Positions 1-14,602 of a stretch of 14,602 bases of DNA are shown here, one piece after another. The position numbers and the translations under genes were made by a program. The notes below the pieces were generated by a model. That model was given only the letters and a program-made list of their open reading frames with translations, ran no database searches and was not told where the DNA came from. How positions within the stretch are numbered: the stretch's first letter is position 1; every line of letters starts with the position of its first letter. Where the stretch lies: the IMG/VR virus record IMGVR_UViG_2908567220_000007. The stretch is one strand, 5' to 3'. The stretch comes from a virus. Lineage: Duplodnaviria > Heunggongvirae > Uroviricota > Caudoviricetes.

Positions 1-303
1 TTACTTCCTGCGTTTATCCTGCTTTGTATGCCCGTGCTGAATGCCCCGCAGTGGATCTTCTTTTTTCAGGTCGATCCCCATGTCCGTTAGTGTTTTTGTG
101 GCGGCGGTTCTTATGGCACAAATCAGGTCTCTTTCCGGTTCCCGGGTTATGGTTGCCTTCCGGATGCATGCCGTTCGTCGTTCCGTTACATACTGACGCG
201 CTTCATCACTTGCCGCCTGTTTCAGTAACTCACCCCAGCGATTAGCCGCCCGTCGCCATAAACCTTTCGCTTCCAGTTCTTCCGCTTTGTCATCATGCAC
301 CAT
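1..303 (-). CDS. PerC-family-like small transcriptional regulator (paralog of 4278..4565)
   Basis: ORF track gives 1..372; the probable start is the internal Met at 301..303 (MVHDDKAEELEAKGLWRRAANRW...), which aligns with the start of the paralog at 4278..4565 (MIRDSKAEELEAKGLYRRAAARW...RRAECIRRA) and has a GGGA motif upstream. Family assignment rests on recalled PerC/Pch motifs, not a search. Stop codon is at window position 1..3. Confidence 0.55.
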   Translation of the reverse strand: MVHDDKAEELEAKGLWRRAANRWGELLKQAASDEARQYVTERRTACIRKATITREPERDLICAIRTAATKTLTDMGIDLKKEDPLRGIQHGHTKQDKRRK

Positions 304-417
304 AAGCATAATCCCATTGATACCTGTTAAATCTGAATGGTTGGTTTCTGTTCTTTTGATAATTTTCCGCATAGCTTATTGTATGACAGTACTGTCCCAC
401 AATAAGGAGTTGCACGC

Positions 418-1890: not shown

Positions 1891-2424
1891 ATCTGTGATT
1901 TGCTGTTCTTCGCTGTGTTGGTATGGGGAGTTCTGGCAATGGTTCAGGCCGTCGCTTTCCTGGTACGTGATTTTTTACGTTCATTATTGTGCTGGTGGCA
2001 GCGTCACGGTGTGTCACGACATATCACCATCACGTCACGCTGATTGCGAAAGCCAGGATTAACCAGTACCGGAACGGGTAGCCCGGTGTATTGTTACCGT
2101 CCTGCCTGCTGGTGGAGTAATTGATAACGGTTATCATCAACGGGAGGGGCGGATCAAATCCCTGCAGTCCTGGCTGTCCGGGACCGCCCGCCTACCCTTG
2201 TTCACATCGCCGCAGGTTCGAAAACTTTTTTTTTGGGAAGGTGTGCACAGACTTGATAGGTAAAACCTATCAGGTAAAGCCACGTCAAACCCGCGCCATT
2301 GCTGGCATCGTTAAAAAAACTCACTCCACCAGCAGGCTAAAAAACTGTGATTTTTCCAGCTTTTGGGGCTCAAAAAGGGCTCCCTAAAAAAACTCTCACA
2401 CTGTCGGAGGGGGCGGGAAATTTT

Positions 2425-3436: not shown

Positions 3437-3985
3437 TTATTCCCCCTGGTGAATCTCCTGCACTACCTGCGGCGTGCTGTCGTGCCAGTCGTTAGCCTGT
3501 ATCACTCTGGTAGTAATTTGCCTGCACAGGTCATCAATAATCTGCCTGACGCGGTTTACTGCGTTCTGATTGATGCCTGCATCGTGCGCCAGAATGTCGG
3601 GGAGTTTTGCCAGTTCCTCGCTTAAGATTTTCCCAAAAATAACCAACTCCCTGCGCACATCCACGGCGGGGATAAGTTCAGCCGTTTCCTGCTCGAACTT
3701 AAGGCGCTCACGCTCAGACTGGTACCAGGCTTTACGGCTTTGTGGATCCATGTCTTCGAGTGATGCGGGGGCGGGTATATTCATGAATGCGCTGATTATA
3801 TCCGTCAGTCGGTACAGCTTTAATTTTTCATGCCCTCCGGCTGGCTGAATGTCCTTTAGCCTTTTCGCTACTGTCTGGCGGCAAACTCCCGCCAGTTCTG
3901 CGAGTTGATTGATATTAAGTTTCAGGTTTTTAAGCTCCCGATCCATTCGTCCTCCGGTAGTTTTAAATGCGTATCGTGCGCTCAT
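3437..3985 (-). CDS. Nu1-like terminase small subunit / packaging-redirection protein (N-terminal HTH)
   Basis: 182-aa ORF; N-terminal NINQLAELAGVCRQTVAKRL...KLYRLTDIISAF resembles the lambda Nu1 HTH (NKKQLADIFGASIRTIQNW...VLYDSAAVIKWY). Sits about 150-190 bp downstream of cos copy B, as Nu1 does after lambda cos. An internal Met at 3944..3946 with GGAGGA upstream is an alternative start. Confidence 0.55.
   Translation of the reverse strand: MSARYAFKTTGGRMDRELKNLKLNINQLAELAGVCRQTVAKRLKDIQPAGGHEKLKLYRLTDIISAFMNIPAPASLEDMDPQSRKAWYQSERERLKFEQETAELIPAVDVRRELVIFGKILSEELAKLPDILAHDAGINQNAVNRVRQIIDDLCRQITTRVIQANDWHDSTPQVVQEIHQGE
3445..3469. repeat. 25-bp direct repeat (copy 2), overlapping the 3' end of the Nu1-like gene
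   Basis: Exact match to 3068..3092, 377 bp apart. Confidence 0.85.
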
Positions 3986-4277: not shown

Positions 4278-4565
4278 TCACTGGTTACCGCCAGGCTGCT
4301 TCGGGTAGTTCCGCCAGACGGATTTACCCGCGTCTTCCATCCCCATCACCGCATGAGTGCGGTTTACAGCCTCTTTCAGTGCCCCGAAGTTATCCGCCAT
4401 AACGGGTGGGCGTGCTGCCCTGCGGATGCATTCCGCGCGACGCTTTGCCACCTGTTCGCGCTCCTTATCGGTGTTCACCAGCTGCATGACCTCAGCCCAC
4501 CGCGCCGCCGCTCTCCGGTACAGGCCTTTAGCCTCCAGTTCTTCCGCTTTGCTGTCACGAATCAT
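4278..4565 (-). CDS. PerC-family-like small transcriptional regulator
   Basis: 95-aa ORF MIRDSKAEELEAKGLYRRAAARWAEVM...RRAECIRRA, paralogous to 1..303; start overlaps the stop of the upstream ORF by 4 nt. Confidence 0.55.
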   Translation of the reverse strand: MIRDSKAEELEAKGLYRRAAARWAEVMQLVNTDKEREQVAKRRAECIRRAARPPVMADNFGALKEAVNRTHAVMGMEDAGKSVWRNYPKQPGGNQ

Positions 4566-5098
4566 GCGCCTGTCTTCTCCTTTGTCGCCTGACGTTTGCG
4601 CTTTTCATTCAGTGCTGCCAGCCGCGTTTCTGCCTCCTGCTGTTCCTGTGGTGTCACTTCCCCACATGGCTGGCCTTTCAGGTCGTAACGTGTGCCACCA
4701 GCCATTAAGGCGCGGTAATAGCGCGGAGACTGCGCATAAGATGCCAGCGTCGCACGTAATGCCCCCGGCCCGAATGTCAGCCCCCTGGCGGCGATATCCT
4801 GTATCAGGTCGTCGAATATCCCCACCTTAAGCGGCTTCGGTGCTTTATGGCTGAATAAGTCAGGCCACATCTCAGTGAGGCGGTTAACGCGTCGGCGGTT
4901 TTTGCGCTGCCTTTTGGTCATATGCTGACACGGTGTCGCCCCTGCGGTCTTCTGTTTGCGGCTCTGCTGTGCGTTCTGATTATCGGGTATCACTTTATGC
5001 GCCGATGTGGTTTTATCCTGCTCTTGTGCCGCCTGCGTCGTTTTCTGCGGCGTGCCGTAAATGCCTTTCGGTTTTCGGTTAATGGTCAGCTTTGTCAT
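4562..5098 (-). CDS. ProQ/FinO-domain protein (putative RNA chaperone)
   Basis: 178 aa; PLKVGIFDDLIQDIAARG...LRATLASYAQSPRYYRAL...GTRYDLKGQPCGEVTPQEQQEAE resembles the ProQ N-terminal FinO domain (PLKIGIFQDL...LRSALRLYTSSWRYL...[23 protein letters not shown], recalled). Basic, low-complexity N-terminus. SD AGGGGA upstream. Confidence 0.7.
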   Translation of the reverse strand: MTKLTINRKPKGIYGTPQKTTQAAQEQDKTTSAHKVIPDNQNAQQSRKQKTAGATPCQHMTKRQRKNRRRVNRLTEMWPDLFSHKAPKPLKVGIFDDLIQDIAARGLTFGPGALRATLASYAQSPRYYRALMAGGTRYDLKGQPCGEVTPQEQQEAETRLAALNEKRKRQATKEKTGA

Positions 5099-5134: not shown

Positions 5135-5560
5135 TTAAAACGGTATGTTATCCCCGTACGGGTCATCGTGCTGGCTTGTCTGTTGTTTTGCCCTGTTCAG
5201 TGCGTCAGTGGCCTGGCCCTGTTGACCTTTTTTGCCGCCCGGTCGCGCCGTTCGCGCACTGATTACGCTGTCTGCAATAACCTGCCAGCCCTGCCGCGTT
5301 TCCCCGTTCTGGCCTGTCCACTGGCTTACCTGCATGTTACCCGCCACGCTCACCAGTTCGCCTTTCTGGTGCCTGGCCAGTGCGTCGGCCTGTCTGCCAA
5401 ACGCCAGGACGGATAACCACATCGTCGCCGTTCCGTCATCTGCCTGGCTGCACGGCAGGGGAACCGCCATACTCGCCATCGCCATTTGTGTCCCTTTGCT
5501 GGTGGTCTTTAACTGCGGGTCAGCCACCAGCCGCCCGTAAGCCGCTATCTGTGCTGTCAT
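5135..5560 (-). CDS. ssb: single-stranded DNA-binding protein (SSB-like)
   Basis: 141 aa; OB-fold-like N-terminal region (AAYGRLVADPQLKTT...GTATMWLSVLAFGRQADALARHQKGELVSVAGNMQVSQWTGQNGETRQGWQVIADSV), Gly/Gln-rich linker and a C-terminal DDPYGDNIPF resembling the canonical SSB DDDIPF tip. ATGA overlap with the upstream ORF. Confidence 0.7.
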   Translation of the reverse strand: MTAQIAAYGRLVADPQLKTTSKGTQMAMASMAVPLPCSQADDGTATMWLSVLAFGRQADALARHQKGELVSVAGNMQVSQWTGQNGETRQGWQVIADSVISARTARPGGKKGQQGQATDALNRAKQQTSQHDDPYGDNIPF

Positions 5561-6596: not shown

Positions 6597-7247
6597 ATGA
6601 ATGCACGAAAAGCGGTACTGGCAGACAATCCGGAATTGATCCTGCGTGTGCTACAGCTGAGATTTGACGAGTCACTGTCGTACCCGCGCATTTCTGCGCA
6701 GACCGGTGTCAGCAAAACCGCCATTTTTTCTCTGGTGAGGCGATTTCACCAGGTATTCACTGACTGGCCTCTTTCCGGTGAATATTCCTGCGGGCAACTG
6801 GCCCGGGCTCTTTTCCCGGGGCGATACCCTTCAGCCCCGACCGTGACTCAGCCTGTGAAAGCAGAGAAACCCCGCCGGAACCGATTTTCACCGGAGTTTA
6901 AATGGAGACTGGTTCAGCAAACTCTTTTACCCGGTGCCTGTGTCGCACAAATAGCTCGAGAGAATGGAATTAACGATAACCTGCTCTTTAACTGGCGGCA
7001 TCTCTGGCGTAACGGTGGCCTGCAACCGCCCGGCGAACATGAAACATCGCTACTTCCCGTGACGTTAACTCCGGAGCCGGATAATAAAATCCCGGCACCA
7101 GTGCAGATACCTGAACAGATAAATACACTGCCAGACAGTCTGTGCTGCGAGCTGGTTCTGCCGGCCGGAACTCTCAGGCTGAAAGGTGAACTGACACCGG
7201 CGTTATTACAGACACTTATCCGCGAAATGAAAGGGAGCAGCCACTGA
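6597..7247 (+). CDS. tnpA: IS66-family accessory protein (orf1)
   Basis: 216-aa ORF, first in the IS; AAGGGA Shine-Dalgarno; ATGA overlap with the next ORF, as is typical for IS66 elements. Confidence 0.75.
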   Translation: MNARKAVLADNPELILRVLQLRFDESLSYPRISAQTGVSKTAIFSLVRRFHQVFTDWPLSGEYSCGQLARALFPGRYPSAPTVTQPVKAEKPRRNRFSPEFKWRLVQQTLLPGACVAQIARENGINDNLLFNWRHLWRNGGLQPPGEHETSLLPVTLTPEPDNKIPAPVQIPEQINTLPDSLCCELVLPAGTLRLKGELTPALLQTLIREMKGSSH

Positions 7248-7594
7248 TGATATCTCTCCCTGCCGGTTCGCGTATCTGGCTGGTTGCCGGTATCACCGAT
7301 ATGCGAAATGGCTTTAACGGCCTGGCCTCAAAAGTTCAGAACGTCCTGAAGGATGACCCGTTCTCCGGGCATCTGTTCATCTTCCGCGGACGCCGGGGTG
7401 ACCAGATAAAAGTGCTGTGGGCTGACAGTGACGGACTGTGCCTCTTCACCAAACGCCTGGAGCGGGGCCGCTTCGTCTGGCCGGTCACCCGCGATGGAAA
7501 GGTTCACCTTACTCCGGCTCAGTTGTCCATGCTTCTCGAAGGCATCGACTGGAAGCACCCGAAACGAACGGAACGCGCTGGCATCCGCATATAA
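7247..7594 (+). CDS. tnpB: IS66-family protein TnpB (orf2)
   Basis: 115-aa ORF MISLPAGSRIWLVAGITDMRNGFNGLASKVQ...LFIFRGRRGDQIKVLWAD, characteristic of IS66 orf2. Confidence 0.85.
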   Translation: MISLPAGSRIWLVAGITDMRNGFNGLASKVQNVLKDDPFSGHLFIFRGRRGDQIKVLWADSDGLCLFTKRLERGRFVWPVTRDGKVHLTPAQLSMLLEGIDWKHPKRTERAGIRI

Positions 7595-7613
7595 CCCGTT
7601 GTAAAGTGAGGAT

Positions 7614-9185
7614 ATGGACACCTCACTTGCTCATGAGAATGCCCGCCTGCGGGCACTGTTGCAGACGCAACAGGACACCATCCGCCAGATGGCGAAATAC
7701 AACCGCCTGCTCTCACAGCGGGTGGCGGCTTATGCTTCCGAAATCAACCGGCTGAAGGCGCTGGTTGCGAAACTGCAGCGCATGCAGTTCGGTAAAAGCT
7801 CAGAAAAACTTCGCGCTAAAACCGAACGGCAGATACAGGAAGCCCAGGAGCGAATCAGCGCACTTCAGGAAGAAATGGCGGAAACGCTGGATGAGCAATA
7901 TGACCCGGTACTGCCATCCGCCCTGCGCCAGTCTTCAGCCCGTAAGCCGTTACCGGCCTCACTTCCCCGTGAAACCCGGGTCATCCGGCCGGAAGAGGAA
8001 TGCTGCCCGGCCTGTGGTGGTGACCTCAGTCCTCTGGGGTGTGATGTGTCAGAGCAACTGGAGCTTATCAGCAGCGCTTTTAAGGTTATCGAAACACAAC
8101 GTCCGAAACTGGCCTGTTGCCGGTGCGACCATATCGTGCAGGCACCAGTACCTTCAAAACCCATTGCACGCAGTTATGCCGGAGCGGGGCTTCTGGCTCA
8201 TATCGTCACCGGGAAGTATGCAGACCATCTGCCGTTATACCGCCAGTCAGAAATATACCTTCGTCAGGGCGTGGAACTGAGCCGCGCCACGCTGGGGCGC
8301 TGGACCGGTGCCGTTGCTGAACTGCTGGAGCCGCTGTATGACGTGCTGCGCCAGTATGTGCTGATGCCCGGTAAAGTCCATGCGGATGATATCCCCGTTC
8401 CGGTCCAGGAGCCGGGCAGTGGTAAAACAAGAACTGCCCGGCTGTGGGTCTATGTCCGTGATGACCGTAACGCCGGTTCACAGATGCCCCCGGCGGTCTG
8501 GTTCGCGTACAGCCCGGACCGGAAAGGTATCCATCCACAGAATCACCTGGCCGGTTACAGCGGTGTGCTTCAGGCAGATGCTTACGGTGGTTACCGGGCG
8601 TTATACGAATCCGGCAGAATAACGGAAGCCGCGTGTATGGCCCATGCCCGGAGAAAAATCCACGATGTGCATGCAAGAGTGCCAACCGACATCACCACGG
8701 AAGCCCTGCAGCGTATCGGTGAACTGTATGTCATCGAGGCAGAAGTCCGGGGATGTTCAGCAGAACAGCGTCTGGCAGCAAGAAAAGCCAGAGCGGCTCC
8801 ACTGATGCAGTCACTGTATGACTGGATACAGGAACAGATGAAAACACTGTCGCGTCACTCGGATACGGCAAAAGCGTTCGCATACCTGCTGAAACAGTGG
8901 GAGGCCCTGAACGTGTACTGCAGTAATGGCTGGGTGGAAATCGACAACAACATCGCAGAGAACGCCTTACGGGGAGTGGCCGTAGGCCGGAAAAACTGGC
9001 TCTTCGCGGGTTCCGACAGCGGTGGCGAACATGCGGCGGTGTTGTACTCGCTGATCGGCACATGCCGTCTGAACAATGTGGAACCAGAAAAATGGCTGCG
9101 TTACGTCATTGAGCATATCCAGGATTGGCCGGCAAACCGGGTACGCGATCTGTTGCCCTGGAAAGTTGATCTGACCTCTCAGTAA
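7614..9185 (+). CDS. tnpC: IS66-family transposase (orf3)
   Basis: 523-aa ORF with N-terminal coiled-coil/leucine-zipper-like region, CCPACGG...CCRC zinc-finger-like motif and a long catalytic core, as in IS66 transposases; GAGG Shine-Dalgarno. Confidence 0.9.
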
Positions 9186-9243: not shown

Positions 9244-10650
9244 TTACAGTGGATGCACGTCATTGCCGTCGATAGTGATCACGCCGTCTTTTTCCAGCTT
9301 GTACAGCCAGCGCCGGAAGTGCTTCATCTCATACCCCAGCTTTTTCATATCGTCACGTAGCAGGGCGATAGTGCACGGCTCTTTGTGTGCTGTCCGTGTT
9401 CTTATGCACTGCCATAATGCGGCGTGATTCTCCGTCTTGTTCCCGGCCTCCTCGATGCGTTCCAGTTCAGCAGGGGCGCGGGGAACGTCAATCACCACCA
9501 TGGACACAATCTCTTCGCCATCTGTATCGGTGAACACCTCCACGCTTTTAAGGTCGTATGCGCTCTCTTTTGGCTCCTCTGCGTCCTTCATCTTCGTACA
9601 TGCCGCCACCAGTGCTGTAACGTCTGAATTTTCCCGGCCGATTCGGTACTCTGCATCAAGCGCGGCACGGAATGCGCTGGAACCACGCGCCCCCTTTGTT
9701 TCATCCTTGCCGGAATGGTGAACCACCAGCACCGTGGCCCCTGTAGCCTGCTTTATCGCGTCACACCCCTGGATAAATGCGCCCATATCACGGGAATCAT
9801 TTTCATCATTCCCACCAAAGCAACGGGCCAGCGTGTCGATCACAATCAGCCGCACATTTTCGCCCGTTCTGCTCTTAACAAGTCCGGCAGTCCTGATAAC
9901 CTGCTCCACATAGTCAGGCGATGCGGGAAAGACAGGCGCGTTAACGATGCACAAATCTGTAACCTCTTTTCCGTATGTTATCTCCCACGCCTTAACGCGG
10001 CGTTTTACGCCCATACTGCCTTCGCCAGCGATATAGATAACCGCGCCCTTACTTACCCTGCGGCCTCCCCATGCCATACCTGTGGCAACATGGCACGACC
10101 AGGAAATAGCCAGGAACGATTTATAAGAACCGCTGGCCCCGTAGGTGCTGCATAATGACTCAGCCGGAATAAGCCCCTTAATTACGTAGCTTTGCTGCGC
10201 GTCGAATCCCTCAGAACCCCATGAGATGGGAAGTGTGATTTTTCGCTTTCCACCATTCATGACCAGACTTTCCCCGCGTTCCCAGGTTTCTTTAAGCCGC
10301 GGTAGTTGCTCGCTCCAGTCCTCCAGCAGTTCGAAATTCTCTGAAAGTAACCGTGCTTCCTGGACACCTGCGATCGCCAGTTTGGTGGCAATGGTCAGCA
10401 TCTGCATATCGTCCAGGTTTCCGGCGCGTATGACCTTTGCTCTGTATCGTCCTTCATCAACAATCTGTAAATTGTCCAGTTCGCTTAACTGATAACGGCC
10501 CAGGTAAACCGGAGGGATGGGATCGCCTGCTTTTTTGGCCTGTGCAATCATGTAATGTTCTGCAAAGGAGTGAGCATTATCACCCGCAAAAATAACCGCC
10601 TCAGTGTGTTTATCTTTCGGTAACAGTTTTACGTTCGGTGCCAGTTTCAT
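9244..10650 (-). CDS. RepA-like P-loop replicative helicase (RecA-fold ATPase)
   Basis: 468 aa; P-loop-like GASGSYKS, Walker B-like RLIVIDTL, and VLVVHHSGK motif reminiscent of RSF1010 RepA-type helicases; C-terminal winged-helix-like tail; AGAGGT Shine-Dalgarno; followed directly by the iteron array. Confidence 0.75.
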   Translation of the reverse strand: MKLAPNVKLLPKDKHTEAVIFAGDNAHSFAEHYMIAQAKKAGDPIPPVYLGRYQLSELDNLQIVDEGRYRAKVIRAGNLDDMQMLTIATKLAIAGVQEARLLSENFELLEDWSEQLPRLKETWERGESLVMNGGKRKITLPISWGSEGFDAQQSYVIKGLIPAESLCSTYGASGSYKSFLAISWSCHVATGMAWGGRRVSKGAVIYIAGEGSMGVKRRVKAWEITYGKEVTDLCIVNAPVFPASPDYVEQVIRTAGLVKSRTGENVRLIVIDTLARCFGGNDENDSRDMGAFIQGCDAIKQATGATVLVVHHSGKDETKGARGSSAFRAALDAEYRIGRENSDVTALVAACTKMKDAEEPKESAYDLKSVEVFTDTDGEEIVSMVVIDVPRAPAELERIEEAGNKTENHAALWQCIRTRTAHKEPCTIALLRDDMKKLGYEMKHFRRWLYKLEKDGVITIDGNDVHPL

Positions 10651-10946
10651 TTTTTACCTCTGGATGCGCTGAGCATGCTTTTTATTTTCTTAATATTTTC
10701 CCGTGCTTTTTCCCTGCTGGTGGGCTTACTGCGTGTTGCGTTCTGTACCAGAGAAAAATCACGCCGGAACTGATAAACAGGCATCACGCAGTCATAGCCG
10801 TACCCATCACGGCGGTAAGTAACGCACCGTCCCGCCACGCTTTTAATCGTTACCGTGCCGCCGTAGTTATCCCGGAAAATATCGCCGGGGTGGATTTCAG
10901 GCCGAGCGGGGCCGCTGGCAGTAAAGCCAGAATTTTTCTGTTTCAT
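10647..10946 (-). CDS. hypothetical protein
   Basis: 99-aa ORF whose stop overlaps the helicase start by 4 nt (translational coupling); no family recognised. Confidence 0.5.
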   Translation of the reverse strand: MKQKNSGFTASGPARPEIHPGDIFRDNYGGTVTIKSVAGRCVTYRRDGYGYDCVMPVYQFRRDFSLVQNATRSKPTSREKARENIKKIKSMLSASRGKK

Positions 10947-10951
10947 GGTTT

Positions 10952-11185
10952 TTATTTCCCGGTGTGTTGTTCTTTATATCTGTCGTGCAAAAGATCTATT
11001 TCTTGTAGTTCCATTATTACCGGCTCAAGAAGCGTTATTAACGCCGTCGCAATATTGCTGTTGCGTTTATCTCTTTCATTATCGCCAAGCGTTCCAAGCC
11101 ATAAGCGCAATATTTCAAGCATGTTTTCACTGTAAGCAAGAGCACGGTATGCACGGTCTACTGTGTCATTGTAAATATCACACAT
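10952..11185 (-). CDS. hypothetical protein
   Basis: 77-aa ORF with GAGGA Shine-Dalgarno 8 nt upstream; 8-nt overlap with the upstream ORF. Confidence 0.5.
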   Translation of the reverse strand: MCDIYNDTVDRAYRALAYSENMLEILRLWLGTLGDNERDKRNSNIATALITLLEPVIMELQEIDLLHDRYKEQHTGK

Positions 11186-11411
11186 GGCTTACATCCTCAG
11201 GGAATTTTCTTCTGTAACGCGCCTCTGCCACATATTCAGCATAGTCCGACGCAATAACGAGAATATCGCTGCCTGTTCCTGAATGCTCAGTGGTTCCAAT
11301 TAAAAAACATGCGGCCTTTATCAGGTCATTAACAACCAGCAACGCATCACCCGCATCATCCGATACGCCATCAAATTCCTGTTTCAGGGCATTAAAACGA
11401 TCATCACGCAT
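11178..11411 (-). CDS. hypothetical protein (possibly the C-terminal part of a frameshifted gene)
   Basis: 77-aa ORF whose ATG lies 2 nt after a 9-nt poly-G tract (plus-strand poly-C 11414..11422); one extra G would fuse it in frame to the 11384..11644 ORF. Confidence 0.45.
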   Translation of the reverse strand: MRDDRFNALKQEFDGVSDDAGDALLVVNDLIKAACFLIGTTEHSGTGSDILVIASDYAEYVAEARYRRKFPEDVSHV

Positions 11412-11644
11412 AACCCCCCCCCATTTTCACAATCAGCAATCAGGATAGCCCTGGCCTCATTCAGTGCCATATCAGCGGTAAGCTGTGCGTAGGCCAGCGA
11501 ATGCGGGATTATTGCCCCTGTATATTCCGGCTCTCTGGTAATGTGTTTTTCCGCGGTTGCTGCCGTGCATGAAATATCAATCAGCGCATCAATCAGTGTT
11601 TTGATTGCTTCGGCGACTGCGTCCGGACGGGTGTTATTGCACAT
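11384..11644 (-). CDS. hypothetical protein (possibly the N-terminal part of a frameshifted gene)
   Basis: 86-aa ORF with GGGGG Shine-Dalgarno; reads through the poly-G tract as GGG and stops 9 codons later. Confidence 0.45.
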   Translation of the reverse strand: MCNNTRPDAVAEAIKTLIDALIDISCTAATAEKHITREPEYTGAIIPHSLAYAQLTADMALNEARAILIADCENGGGLCVMIVLMP

Positions 11645-11840
11645 GATGCACCCCCTGACGAATACGGGCGGCGAATACCATCACGCAGCCAGCCGGGGAT
11701 TGCTGGCGTGCTTCCTGTTCGCTGGTGGCCTCAATGGTAATCACGCGCGGTTGTGCCGTGCTCAGGGCGATAAAACGCCAGATGTATTTATTCAGGTTGT
11801 GCGAGTCCCGCCCTTGCGGGTGTCTGGTATAATTTCTCAT
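11634..11840 (-). CDS. hypothetical small protein, first gene of the leftward operon
   Basis: 68-aa ORF from the ATG at 11838..11840 with GAGGTA Shine-Dalgarno; it is the 3' portion of the 328-aa track ORF, the rest of which looks like antisense read-through. Confidence 0.4.
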   Translation of the reverse strand: MRNYTRHPQGRDSHNLNKYIWRFIALSTAQPRVITIEATSEQEARQQSPAGCVMVFAARIRQGVHHVQ

Positions 11841-11879
11841 AGCTACCTCGATACTCTTTCTATCGTTGGTGGTTAGACG

Positions 11880-12036
11880 CCCTGCATGTGTGCCACCACT
11901 GCGGGGCGTTGCTGTATATACACCACAATTATTGGTGTGCATACAGATTAAATTTAAGTGTGCTACAGTGTCAAGTGTTTTATTAACACACCTTTTGGTG
12001 TAATGTGTACACACCTCAAAATAACCGGACATCCTA
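11880..12036. promoter_or_regulatory. divergent promoter/operator region with clustered ACACC/GGTGT inverted repeats
   Basis: TATATACACCA-7-TGGTGTGCATA at 11915..11943; ACACC-TTTT-GGTGT at 11988..12001; GGTGT-9-ACACC with palindrome GTGTACAC at 12005..12012; three AGTGT direct repeats at 11958..11978. Confidence 0.45.
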
Positions 12037-12342
12037 ATGGCAACAGGAAACATCAACAGCAGATCGCAAATGAAAAATATCCGCTTCCCCCATGATGTAA
12101 TCGAGGAAATGGAAAATTCGAAAACGGAAGGGGAAACAATAGCCGCTTTCGTGATTACAGCTGTTCGCGGGGAGATCGCCCGCCGCCAAGCTGAAGGAAG
12201 CGGAGAAAATCCCCTGGTTTCTTCGCTCGATGCACTGGCGCAGGTGGAAAAAATTGGAGTCAAAGCTGCCGAGGAGATCGGGCAACTAGTCGCCGTCGCG
12301 CGTGAAGAACTCCAGCGCCGCAAGGCCAAAGAGCAGGAATAG
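12037..12342 (+). CDS. putative small DNA-binding regulator (possible ribbon-helix-helix; coiled-coil C-terminus)
   Basis: 101-aa ORF divergent from the leftward operon; KNIRFPHDVIEEMEN looks like a strand-helix ribbon-helix-helix start; weak Shine-Dalgarno, and an alternative start at the Met at 12070. Confidence 0.45.
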   Translation: MATGNINSRSQMKNIRFPHDVIEEMENSKTEGETIAAFVITAVRGEIARRQAEGSGENPLVSSLDALAQVEKIGVKAAEEIGQLVAVAREELQRRKAKEQE

Positions 12343-12445
12343 CCCACCAGCAAGCCAGCACACTGATCACATTGCCAACCGGATGTAATCACGGCATAGT
12401 AATCAGCGCTCATGCGTTGGGGATAACGCGCAATTAGTGTTGAAG

Positions 12446-12474
12446 GGCCACCGTAGCGGGTGGCCTTTGTTTTG
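12446..12474 (+). terminator. putative rho-independent terminator
   Basis: GGCCACC-gtagcg-GGTGGCC hairpin followed by TTTGTTTTG, about 100 nt after the 12342 stop. Confidence 0.5.
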
Positions 12475-12624
12475 CCTGTTATCCGGCAATTGTGGCGCTT
12501 CGCCACACGGTTGATATAATTCCCCTGCACTGATCCATTTTTTTCGCAGCAGGTTAATTGTTCGCAAGGGCGCTCCGGCAACGGGGCGCTTTTTGTTATG
12601 TTCATCGCGTTACGCCTCACACCA

Positions 12625-12831
12625 TTACGCAGCCGTTCCGCGCGCTTCTTCCTCGCGCTCTTTCAGCCAGGCCAGCACTTCATCTTCATACCAGCCAACA
12701 CGGCGCAGACCGATTTTGAAGCCTTTCGGGAATTTTCCGGCGTTGATCATGTCCTGTAGCGAACTGTCTGCCTTGATGCGCAGAATATTTTTTACTTCCT
12801 GACGGGTAAGTATTTTTCTGATTGTTTCCAC
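12625..12831 (-). CDS. alpA: AlpA-family phage transcriptional regulator (Vis/excisionase-like HTH)
   Basis: 68 aa; LTRQEVKNILRIKADSSLQDMINAGKFPKGFKIGLRRVGWYEDEVLAWL matches the AlpA pattern (KFP...G.R.VGW...E...W). Confidence 0.85.
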   Translation of the reverse strand: METIRKILTRQEVKNILRIKADSSLQDMINAGKFPKGFKIGLRRVGWYEDEVLAWLKEREEEARGTAA

Positions 12832-13360: not shown

Positions 13361-14602
13361 TTACACGGCACGGATACCCCTTTTACCACTGGCTATGGTC
13401 ACTCCGGTAGCTGCGGCCTCTACAAATTCCCCCCACCAGCGCATAAGCACCACGCGCTTTTCCAGGTAGTTACTTCGGTTATATGCTCGCCTTACCTCGT
13501 TTGTGTCCACGTGTGCGAGTGCGGCCTCGATTACGTCCGGCTCGAATCCTTCCTCGTTCGCTGCTGTACTGAATATGGCGCGTAATCCGTGAGACACCAG
13601 CACACCAGCGTAACCCATCCGGCGCAATGCGGCGTTAGCTGTCTGGCTGCTCATTGGCAGCATTGGATTTTTAAGGCTGGGAAAAACGTGTTCCCTGTGT
13701 GCGCTGATTGGCTTCATGGTTTCCAGTACAGCCATAGCCTGACCGCAAAGGGGGATCACGTGGTCACGGCGCATCTTCATGCGTCCGGCTGGAATCGTCC
13801 AGGTTTCGGCATCGAGATCTATTTCTTCCCAGCGTGCGGCGGCTGCTTCGGCTGGGCGTGCTACGGTCAGCAGTTGCCACTCAATCAGCAATCTGGTTTG
13901 CCGTTCTATGCTGGCGACCGATAAATCGTGCATTAGCTGCGGTAGCTGTTCCGGTCGGATGGTTGGCATGTGCTTTTTGGTGGGTGAGGGGAATGCCTTG
14001 CGGACGTTCGCGGCGGTGTTGATGTCAATCAGCCCACTGTTGGCAGCAAAATCCATCACTTCATTGATGCGTTGTAAAACGCGTTTCAGGGTTTCCAGGT
14101 TGCCGCGTGCTTTAATGGGTGTGAGTATCTCAACAAAGCGGCGAGCTGTGAGGGTATCTATTGGCGTGTTTCCGATGTACGGGAATACGTATTTTTCCAG
14201 GGATCGCCAGATATCCTTAATCGTGTTGTAAGCCAGATTCTGGCCTTTTTTCATCTCGTACCAGTCCGAGGCAACTTTTTCGAACGTGTTGCCCTTTTTC
14301 CGACTCTCTGCTTCACGTTTCCGGCGTTCGTGGTCCTGTGGGTCAACTCCCTTCGCTATGAGTGACCTGTATTCATTCCGTCGTTCTCTGGCATCGGACA
14401 GGGAAACATCATTCAGCGATCCGAGGCTGATGATAGTCCGTTTTTTATCTGCCGGGCGGTAGTACGTAAAACGCCAGATTTTTGATCCGGAGGGTTTCAC
14501 CAGAAGAAATAATCCTCCACCATCCTGCAGGGTGTATTCCTTTTCCCCTGGTCGTGCGTTTTTGATCTCCGTAATAGTTAGTGGGGTGGTTTTTCGTGCC
14601 AT
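13361..14602 (-). CDS. int: P4-type tyrosine integrase (site-specific recombinase, phage integrase family)
   Basis: 413 aa; N-terminal arm-binding-like region (MARKTTPLTITEIKNARPGEKEYTLQDGGGLFLLVKPSGSKIWRFTYY); C-terminal catalytic region with HGLR box and RRAYNRSNY tyrosine region. Start codon is the last three bases of the window. Confidence 0.95.
   Translation of the reverse strand: MARKTTPLTITEIKNARPGEKEYTLQDGGGLFLLVKPSGSKIWRFTYYRPADKKRTIISLGSLNDVSLSDARERRNEYRSLIAKGVDPQDHERRKREAESRKKGNTFEKVASDWYEMKKGQNLAYNTIKDIWRSLEKYVFPYIGNTPIDTLTARRFVEILTPIKARGNLETLKRVLQRINEVMDFAANSGLIDINTAANVRKAFPSPTKKHMPTIRPEQLPQLMHDLSVASIERQTRLLIEWQLLTVARPAEAAAARWEEIDLDAETWTIPAGRMKMRRDHVIPLCGQAMAVLETMKPISAHREHVFPSLKNPMLPMSSQTANAALRRMGYAGVLVSHGLRAIFSTAANEEGFEPDVIEAALAHVDTNEVRRAYNRSNYLEKRVVLMRWWGEFVEAAATGVTIASGKRGIRAV

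Follow-up and report, generated by a model that had tools for sequence, protein, structure and literature searches.

The nine-nucleotide poly-G run at positions 11414..11422 of the window (by which we mean the whole 14,602-nucleotide stretch of DNA analysed) is best read, with a probability of roughly 0.7, as one allele of a slippage-prone poly-G tract at the boundary between two small genes, independent and translationally coupled, whose early operon, headed by AlpA, belongs to a PICI-like element. Nine consecutive C residues were read on the plus strand at 11414..11422, corresponding to G9 on the coding minus strand, exactly where an earlier reading made from the letters alone (hereafter the sequence-only reading) had placed the run. 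Around it the minus strand reads ...GATTGTGAAAAT-GGGGGGGGG-TTATGCGTGATGA..., and the features that meet there or lie next to it are the following.

11634..11840, minus strand: Icd-like gene of 68 aa, upstream of ORF1; its stop overlaps the ORF1 start (ATGTGCAATAA), with a GGGGG Shine–Dalgarno (SD) sequence before it

11384..11644, minus strand: ORF1, 86 aa in the G9 state; matches phrog_5146 and the N-terminal half of phrog_2512

11414..11422, minus strand: the poly-G tract (G9), coding for Gly-Gly-Gly near the ORF1 C terminus and forming the predicted SD of ORF2

11404..11406, minus strand: latent TGA, the ORF1 stop in G8 and G11 alleles; out of the ORF1 frame in the G9 window

11178..11411, minus strand: ORF2, 77 aa; matches phrog_24341 and the C-terminal half of phrog_2512

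10952..11185, minus strand: ORF3, 77 aa; its first 8 nt are shared with the end of ORF2 (ATGTGTGA)

The sequence-only reading had set the run at the junction of an 86-aa and a 77-aa ORF; both ORFs are present as described, but the 86-aa ORF does not end at the tract. In the G9 state, ORF1 reads through the run and stops at 11384..11386, 28 nt inside ORF2, which has its own ATG at 11409..11411, 2 nt past the tract. The conserved core of ORF1 comprises residues 1–74, and the tail LCVMIVLMP is specific to the G9 state. In the G8/G11 frame, the ORF1 TGA and the ORF2 start overlap by 8 nt (ATGCGTGA) and ORF1 is 79–80 aa long, its tail reading ...NGGGYA-stop in G8 alleles. Gain of one G or loss of two had been predicted to give a single ORF of about 155 aa, and both such alleles are found in nature: G10 yields one ORF of 155 aa (...CENGGGVMRDD) and G7 one of 154 aa (...CENGGVMRDD). 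A protein search with the fused form returned more than 100 diverse clusters of 154/155 aa with CENGGVMRD or CENGGGVMRD at the junction, as well as rare G4- and G13-equivalent junctions. ORF2 is intact at 73–77 aa in nearly all loci, independent of the tract frame.

Considered by itself against chance, the run is no more than suggestive: dinucleotide-preserving shuffling gave an expectation of 0.10 G9/C9 runs per window, with at least one such run in 17 of 200 shuffles. No other G/C run in the window exceeds 6 nt, and the one other homopolymer of 9 is a T9 at 2226..2234. At the same position, 138 of the other 146 homologous loci carry G7–G11 and the rest a G-rich tract interrupted by T or A (GGAGGTGGG is an interrupted form), and since the tract is kept in place across homologous loci, the G9 is not a chance feature. 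In E. coli, mononucleotide runs are hot spots for insertions and deletions, and 8-bp G:C runs are outliers in the genome (PMC8510543).

To describe the tract at the population level, homologous loci were collected by a flank-anchored pattern scan of IMG/VR and of metagenome contigs, many of the latter SPAdes NODE contigs. Both collections contained a range of lengths (IMG/VR: G7 23, G8 34, G9 18, G10 4 and G11 2, plus six T-interrupted tracts; metagenome contigs: G7 10, G8 27, G9 12 and G10 1, plus three interrupted tracts). Grouped by reading frame, the 147 loci including the window comprise 74 in the G8/G11 frame (50%), 41 in the fused G7/G10 frame (28%) and 32 in the G9 frame (22%), so that the allele of the window is a common one and no oddity; the interrupted tracts are in the G8 frame in eight of nine cases. 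The length distribution is smooth and unimodal at about 8, and the absence of any three-base periodicity indicates that no frame is under strong counter-selection. Complete E. coli genomes with the same flanks are annotated with one CDS at G7 (154 aa) or G10 (155 aa) and, at G8, with a 79-aa and a 77-aa CDS that share 8 nt. More generally, annotation gives the locus a single hypothetical protein in genomes with G7 or G10 and two in genomes with G8, G9 or G11, never with a frameshift flag. Of the outcome in homologues that the sequence-only reading had named as a refutation, one half was seen, two separately conserved proteins, but the tract is not fixed at nine Gs.

Length change at the tract is recurrent. 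On a neighbour-joining tree of the ±400-nt flanks, which is mosaic through recombination, tract length changed at least 43 times over 87 leaves, compared with a mean of 45 and a minimum of 40 for shuffled labels; on this mosaic tree, tract length is without phylogenetic signal and its change is recurrent and reversible. Loci that are perfectly identical over 1.2–3.3 kb differ in tract length alone (for example, 3,345 nt are common to the G8 locus L024 and the G7 locus L128), and one haplotype occurs at three lengths (G8 in L006, G9 in L077 and G10 in L027). With G7–G11 lying between conserved flanks, these pairs bear out the suggestion that the run is a slipped-strand site. Control runs of the island (T6, T7, A7 and C6; at 6–7 nt, shorter than the tract) were unvarying in the same loci. 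Within one lineage, 15 complete genomes from at least eight sources share an identical 401-nt segment and all carry G7, which indicates that the switching rate is not extreme. Match length agreed with annotation as one or two CDSs in 53 of 58 full-length rows, the remaining rows (H142–H146) being ambiguous through other indels. Tract lengths are therefore reproducible inside a clone and labile over the time separating islands, which is the expected outcome of slipped-strand mispairing on a long G:C run, and we infer replication slippage as the mutational mechanism.

The tract is also the predicted SD of ORF2. Its computed duplex with the 16S anti-SD (−11.1 kcal/mol) is the strongest in the operon (the first percentile of 20-mers in the window is −10.3 kcal/mol), and the predicted energy is flat from G7 upward; G-rich motifs act as SDs in a study of heptamers in E. 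coli (PMC4066793). As pairing is predicted to be saturated at G7 and above, a change of length would keep the SD and ATG spacing of ORF2 and shift only the 3' end of ORF1, and ORF2 is accordingly predicted, with its own SD and ATG, probably to be made in all tract states, the G9 and fused states included. In the G9 state, the ORF1 stop 28 nt past the ORF2 start could weaken coupling. dN/dS is low for both genes in all tract states (0.23–0.29 for ORF1 and 0.20–0.23 for ORF2), where the split by tract state reflects long-term history rather than present tract length, and ORF1 and ORF2 are under purifying selection in each state.

From these observations, we propose that a GGAGGTGGGG-type G-rich SD gave rise to the tract, most likely by turning into a pure homopolymer, after which ORF1 would change between three frames at its 3' end as single Gs were gained or lost. 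The G8 and G11 alleles have the ancestral layout (ORF1 of 79–80 aa ending ...GGYA-stop, with its TGA over the ORF2 start). In G9 alleles ORF1 runs on to 86 aa, gaining a short hydrophobic tail and stopping 28 nt within ORF2, and in G7 and G10 alleles ORF1 and ORF2 are fused into a single ORF of 154 or 155 aa. As ORF2 would keep its own SD and ATG throughout, all three states, which coexist in nature, would be tolerated. The operon is presumably silent while the element is integrated, so that selection would act only at mobilisation, and a silent integrated operon together with an independent ORF2 start would make polymorphism at the junction largely neutral. The fused alleles are numerous and diverse, and the fusion may carry a function of its own.

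The next most probable reading after ours is that the tract is an adaptive contingency locus: a selected, reversible switch by which two early proteins are made separately or in fused or tail-extended form, altering an interaction with the helper phage or the host. All three frames are frequent and switching is recurrent, the tract has been kept over islands up to ~25% different in this gene, both genes are under purifying selection and more variable poly-G tracts occur elsewhere in the same island family, all of which would fit a selected switch. We nevertheless hold it to be unlikely, as the smooth, unimodal lengths are those that mutation alone would give, the ORF2 start is kept in all states, leaving no clear ON/OFF switch, and the tract is stable within a clone. 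Contingency loci based on simple sequence repeats (SSRs) are expected to switch at high rates within a clonal population (~1e-5 to 1e-2 per generation), visible as length heterogeneity among reads. At the DNA level, the tract appears to behave as a homopolymeric-tract contingency locus of the kind found in Neisseria, Haemophilus, Campylobacter, Helicobacter and Bordetella, with a coding poly-G/C run, slipped-strand length change that is recurrent and reversible, and coexisting alleles in three frames. It differs from those loci in its host, E. coli, where such loci are uncommon, in residing in a phage satellite rather than in a surface-antigen or restriction-modification gene, and in offering no clear ON/OFF state, the downstream gene having its own start.

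The further tracts of the island family are of several kinds. A second variable poly-G, (A)G5–G9, lies in the middle of an alternative, 69-aa allele of ORF3 (TCATGCCGAAC(A)Gn ATTTATTTTCTG), ~+343 nt downstream of the focal tract (L002, ~980; L008; L033; L036; L048; L060; L066; L067; L076). In contrast to the junction tract, it is mostly in frame (8 of 11 loci), with out-of-frame lengths giving truncated products of 47–52 aa. In another locus (L004), RefSeq flags a frameshift in the gene at the ORF3 position, where a run of at least seven Gs was not seen. Additional poly-G runs of variable length occur in homologous islands at ~+5.4 kb (L014, G10), ~+4.9 kb (L036, G8) and ~+2.76 kb (L018, L054 (G7), L064 (G8)), and one of these is immediately followed by an ATG (tggcgcgataattacGnatATGcc). 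From these cases, poly-G tracts seem to recur as a trait of the island family. That together they form a satellite contingency system, in which stochastic switching of two early proteins among separate, tail-extended and fused states diversifies the response of a clonal island population to helper phages (in induction, host range or interference), seems doubtful; if true, it would amount to SSR-based bet-hedging in an enterobacterial mobile element.

Several sequencing platforms are prone to errors in long G/C homopolymers, and the nearest relatives of the window are G7, G10 and G8, so that its nine Gs might be a sequencing or assembly error, the true length being 8 (two genes) or 7 or 10 (a fusion). 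This is improbable, given that G9 accounts for 21–23% of loci in two independent collections, Illumina-style SPAdes contigs among them, that lengths were reproducible over the 15 independently sequenced genomes of one lineage and that other homopolymers did not vary. Sequencing error, which the sequence-only reading had listed among the possible sources of such a run, likewise fails to account for the population pattern, in which control homopolymers are unvarying and lengths repeat within a lineage.

The two-gene state of our preferred reading is supported by distant homologues. An exhaustive search with a fused homologue against 1.84 billion cluster representatives gave 47 hits, the distant ones nearly all separate halves: N-half proteins of 72–93 aa that do not have the Gly run and end ...ADIQEVGHA-stop, ...IQGAHHA-stop or ...QDVYP-stop, and C-half proteins of 75–78 aa whose residue 1 aligns to the Met directly after the tract. 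On their own contigs, the ORF2 homologues lie behind unrelated genes that they overlap by 4 or 8 nt, their SDs being of the GGAGG type, such as caggaggtacgtccATG, and a detectable ORF2 homologue was found next door to none of the three distant ORF1 homologues inspected. In locus L102, the ORF1 homologue is followed directly by a homologue of ORF3 (35% identity, E = 1.5e-7; junction attgctgatattcaggaggtggggcATG), and the position equivalent to the tract reads caggaggtggggcATG. Across L097–L102 and the distant homologues, ORF2 is seen without ORF1, and ORF1 is seen beside ORF3 or in a phage Ash/KilA-N context. Because the distant homologues are separate, each found without the other, and carry a GGAGG-type SD in the place of the tract, the two-gene state is ancestral and the fusion derived. 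ORF1 and ORF2 are thus modules that are independent and shuffled, with fusion as a derived by-product, and ORF1, ORF2, ORF3 and the Icd-like gene, judged by their neighbourhoods, appear to shuffle as independent cassettes among islands and phages.

These homologues also bear on whether the locus is a single gene inactivated by a frameshift, in which the 154/155-aa ORF would be the genuine gene and G9 a pseudogene or OFF phase. The sequence-only reading had gone some way in this direction in describing the tract as poised for frameshift fusion. Its fused protein does have many diverse database clusters, phrog_2512 is a family of 154 aa and RefSeq has a single CDS here in genomes with G7 or G10, yet the homologues do not support a single gene to be restored, with the C-half beginning at the Met after the tract and each half lying beside unrelated genes. 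The two-gene G8 frame is the commonest and also that of the interrupted tracts in all but one of nine cases, the junction has a conserved ATG and a predicted strong SD, and selection is not relaxed in split alleles. In the AlphaFold2 model of the fusion (all-helical, low confidence, pLDDT 66, pTM 0.43), confidence is lowest, among internal segments, at the Gly linker. We consider a single gene quite improbable and have rejected the pseudogene interpretation on the grounds that the distant homologues are separate, independently occurring proteins.

Least probable is programmed recoding, in which −1 frameshifting on G_GGG_GGG or slippage of RNA polymerase would produce the fusion from a G9 template at a set ratio: a −1 shift inside the run does enter the ORF2 frame and homopolymers can promote slippage (PMC5009743), but we rejected this account, along with the transcriptional slippage suggested by the sequence-only reading, as a stimulatory structure is absent (RNA structure downstream of the tract is unexceptional, z = −0.15 and −0.42), G-only heptamers are weak shifters (among the heptamers measured in E. 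coli, G_GG.G_GG.U shifted least, at 0.018% with no stimulator present; PMC4066793), the sites known for transcriptional slippage in bacteria consist of A/T runs (PMC3711429) and the tract length of 7–11, and hence the shift needed, is not conserved.

The junction of two coupled small genes that we favour at the tract sits in an operon of similar junctions. The small genes are chained start-on-stop: the Icd-like/ORF1 and ORF2/ORF3 junctions each have a G-rich SD ahead, and the ORF2/ORF3 junction is an ATGnnTGA overlap, like the ORF1/ORF2 junction of G8 alleles. On the minus strand the order is integrase, AlpA, Icd-like gene, ORF1, ORF2, ORF3, DUF4222 gene and AAA_25 gene, and the remaining features of the island are as follows.

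13361..14602, minus strand: tyrosine integrase of the island

12625..12831, minus strand: AlpA-family regulator at the head of the operon

10647..10946, minus strand: DUF4222 gene, next in the operon after ORF3

9244..10650, minus strand: AAA_25 primase/helicase-like replication gene

6597..9185, plus strand: IS66-family element (HTH_Tnp_1 ORF, TnpB_IS66 and DDE_Tnp_IS66), directly downstream of the primase-like gene

1..372, 3437..3985, 4562..5098 and 5135..5560, minus strand: island cargo, namely genes for a PerC-family activator, DUF1441, a ProQ/FinO-family RNA-binding protein and SSB

A 328-aa minus-strand ORF (11634..12620) is probably spurious in its part upstream of the Icd-like gene. 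Homologous loci have a divergent YlcI/YnfO-family gene annotated within the 11634..12620 interval; the 101-aa plus-strand ORF at 12037..12342 may be its counterpart. The IS66-family element probably breaks the post-replication module of the island. Among the genes that mark Gram-negative PICIs, Pfam matches to an integrase, AlpA and AAA_25 were found, and also to PerC, and no phage structural or lysis genes were detected; a megablast of the operon against a phage collection returned no match. AlpA is the helper-induced master activator in Gram-negative PICIs, whose described layout fits the island (PMC11773190). Judged by its genes, the host element appears to be an E. coli-type PICI-like phage satellite. 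In common with Gram-negative PICIs (EcCICFT073 and EcCIMP1) and P4-like satellites, it combines an integrase and AlpA with a set of small early genes, a primase/helicase and a gene of the PerC family, and structural or lysis genes were not detected in it; unlike them, it is interrupted by an IS66-family element.

Searches of Pfam, NCBIfam, PADLOC and PDB sequences with ORF1, ORF2, ORF3 and the fusion gave no matches, and comparison of ORF1, ORF2 and ORF3 with each other detected no paralogy. In PHROGs, the locus is spread over three families without a functional annotation, 2512 (fused, 154 aa), 5146 (N-half) and 24341 (C-half). Under the frame-transition criteria of GeneTack (PMC3711429), it has both a phase-variation signature (a repeat where the frames change) and a translational-coupling signature (a start no more than 10 nt from a stop). 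It resembles translationally coupled overlapping genes (ATGnnTGA or ATGA with an internal SD) in that no more than 10 nt separate the ORF2 start from the ORF1 stop in the commonest allele, the SD lies inside the upstream gene and the same type of junction is repeated down the operon. The difference is that the SD here is a hypermutable homopolymer, which makes the geometry strain-dependent (8-nt overlap, 28-nt overlap or fusion): the overlap of start and stop is 8 nt in G8 alleles, 4 or 8 nt in distant loci and 28 nt in the G9 window. As in dnaX, IS3/IS911 orfAB and Shigella spa13, two overlapping frames meet at a slippery homopolymer and a fusion product is possible; unlike those cases, the slippery length is not conserved, a stimulatory structure is absent, the G-only heptamer shifts very poorly in E. 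coli, and in some alleles the fusion exists at the DNA level. The literature searched contained no account of this tract or of variable homopolymers in PICIs or P4-like elements.

Together, these results trace the one-gene and two-gene calls at this locus, and its division among three PHROG families (2512, 5146 and 24341), to a variable homopolymer that these annotations do not mention as the cause, and recognising the tract prevents false calls of fusion, fission, pseudogene or sequencing error. They also provide a clear, population-scale case of a hypermutable poly-G in a species, E. coli, that seldom carries such tracts; this one is situated in a satellite and doubles as a predicted Shine–Dalgarno sequence. 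If switching has a phenotype, the biology of contingency loci would extend to enterobacterial satellites; if it has none, the tract would serve as a natural marker of very recent island divergence.
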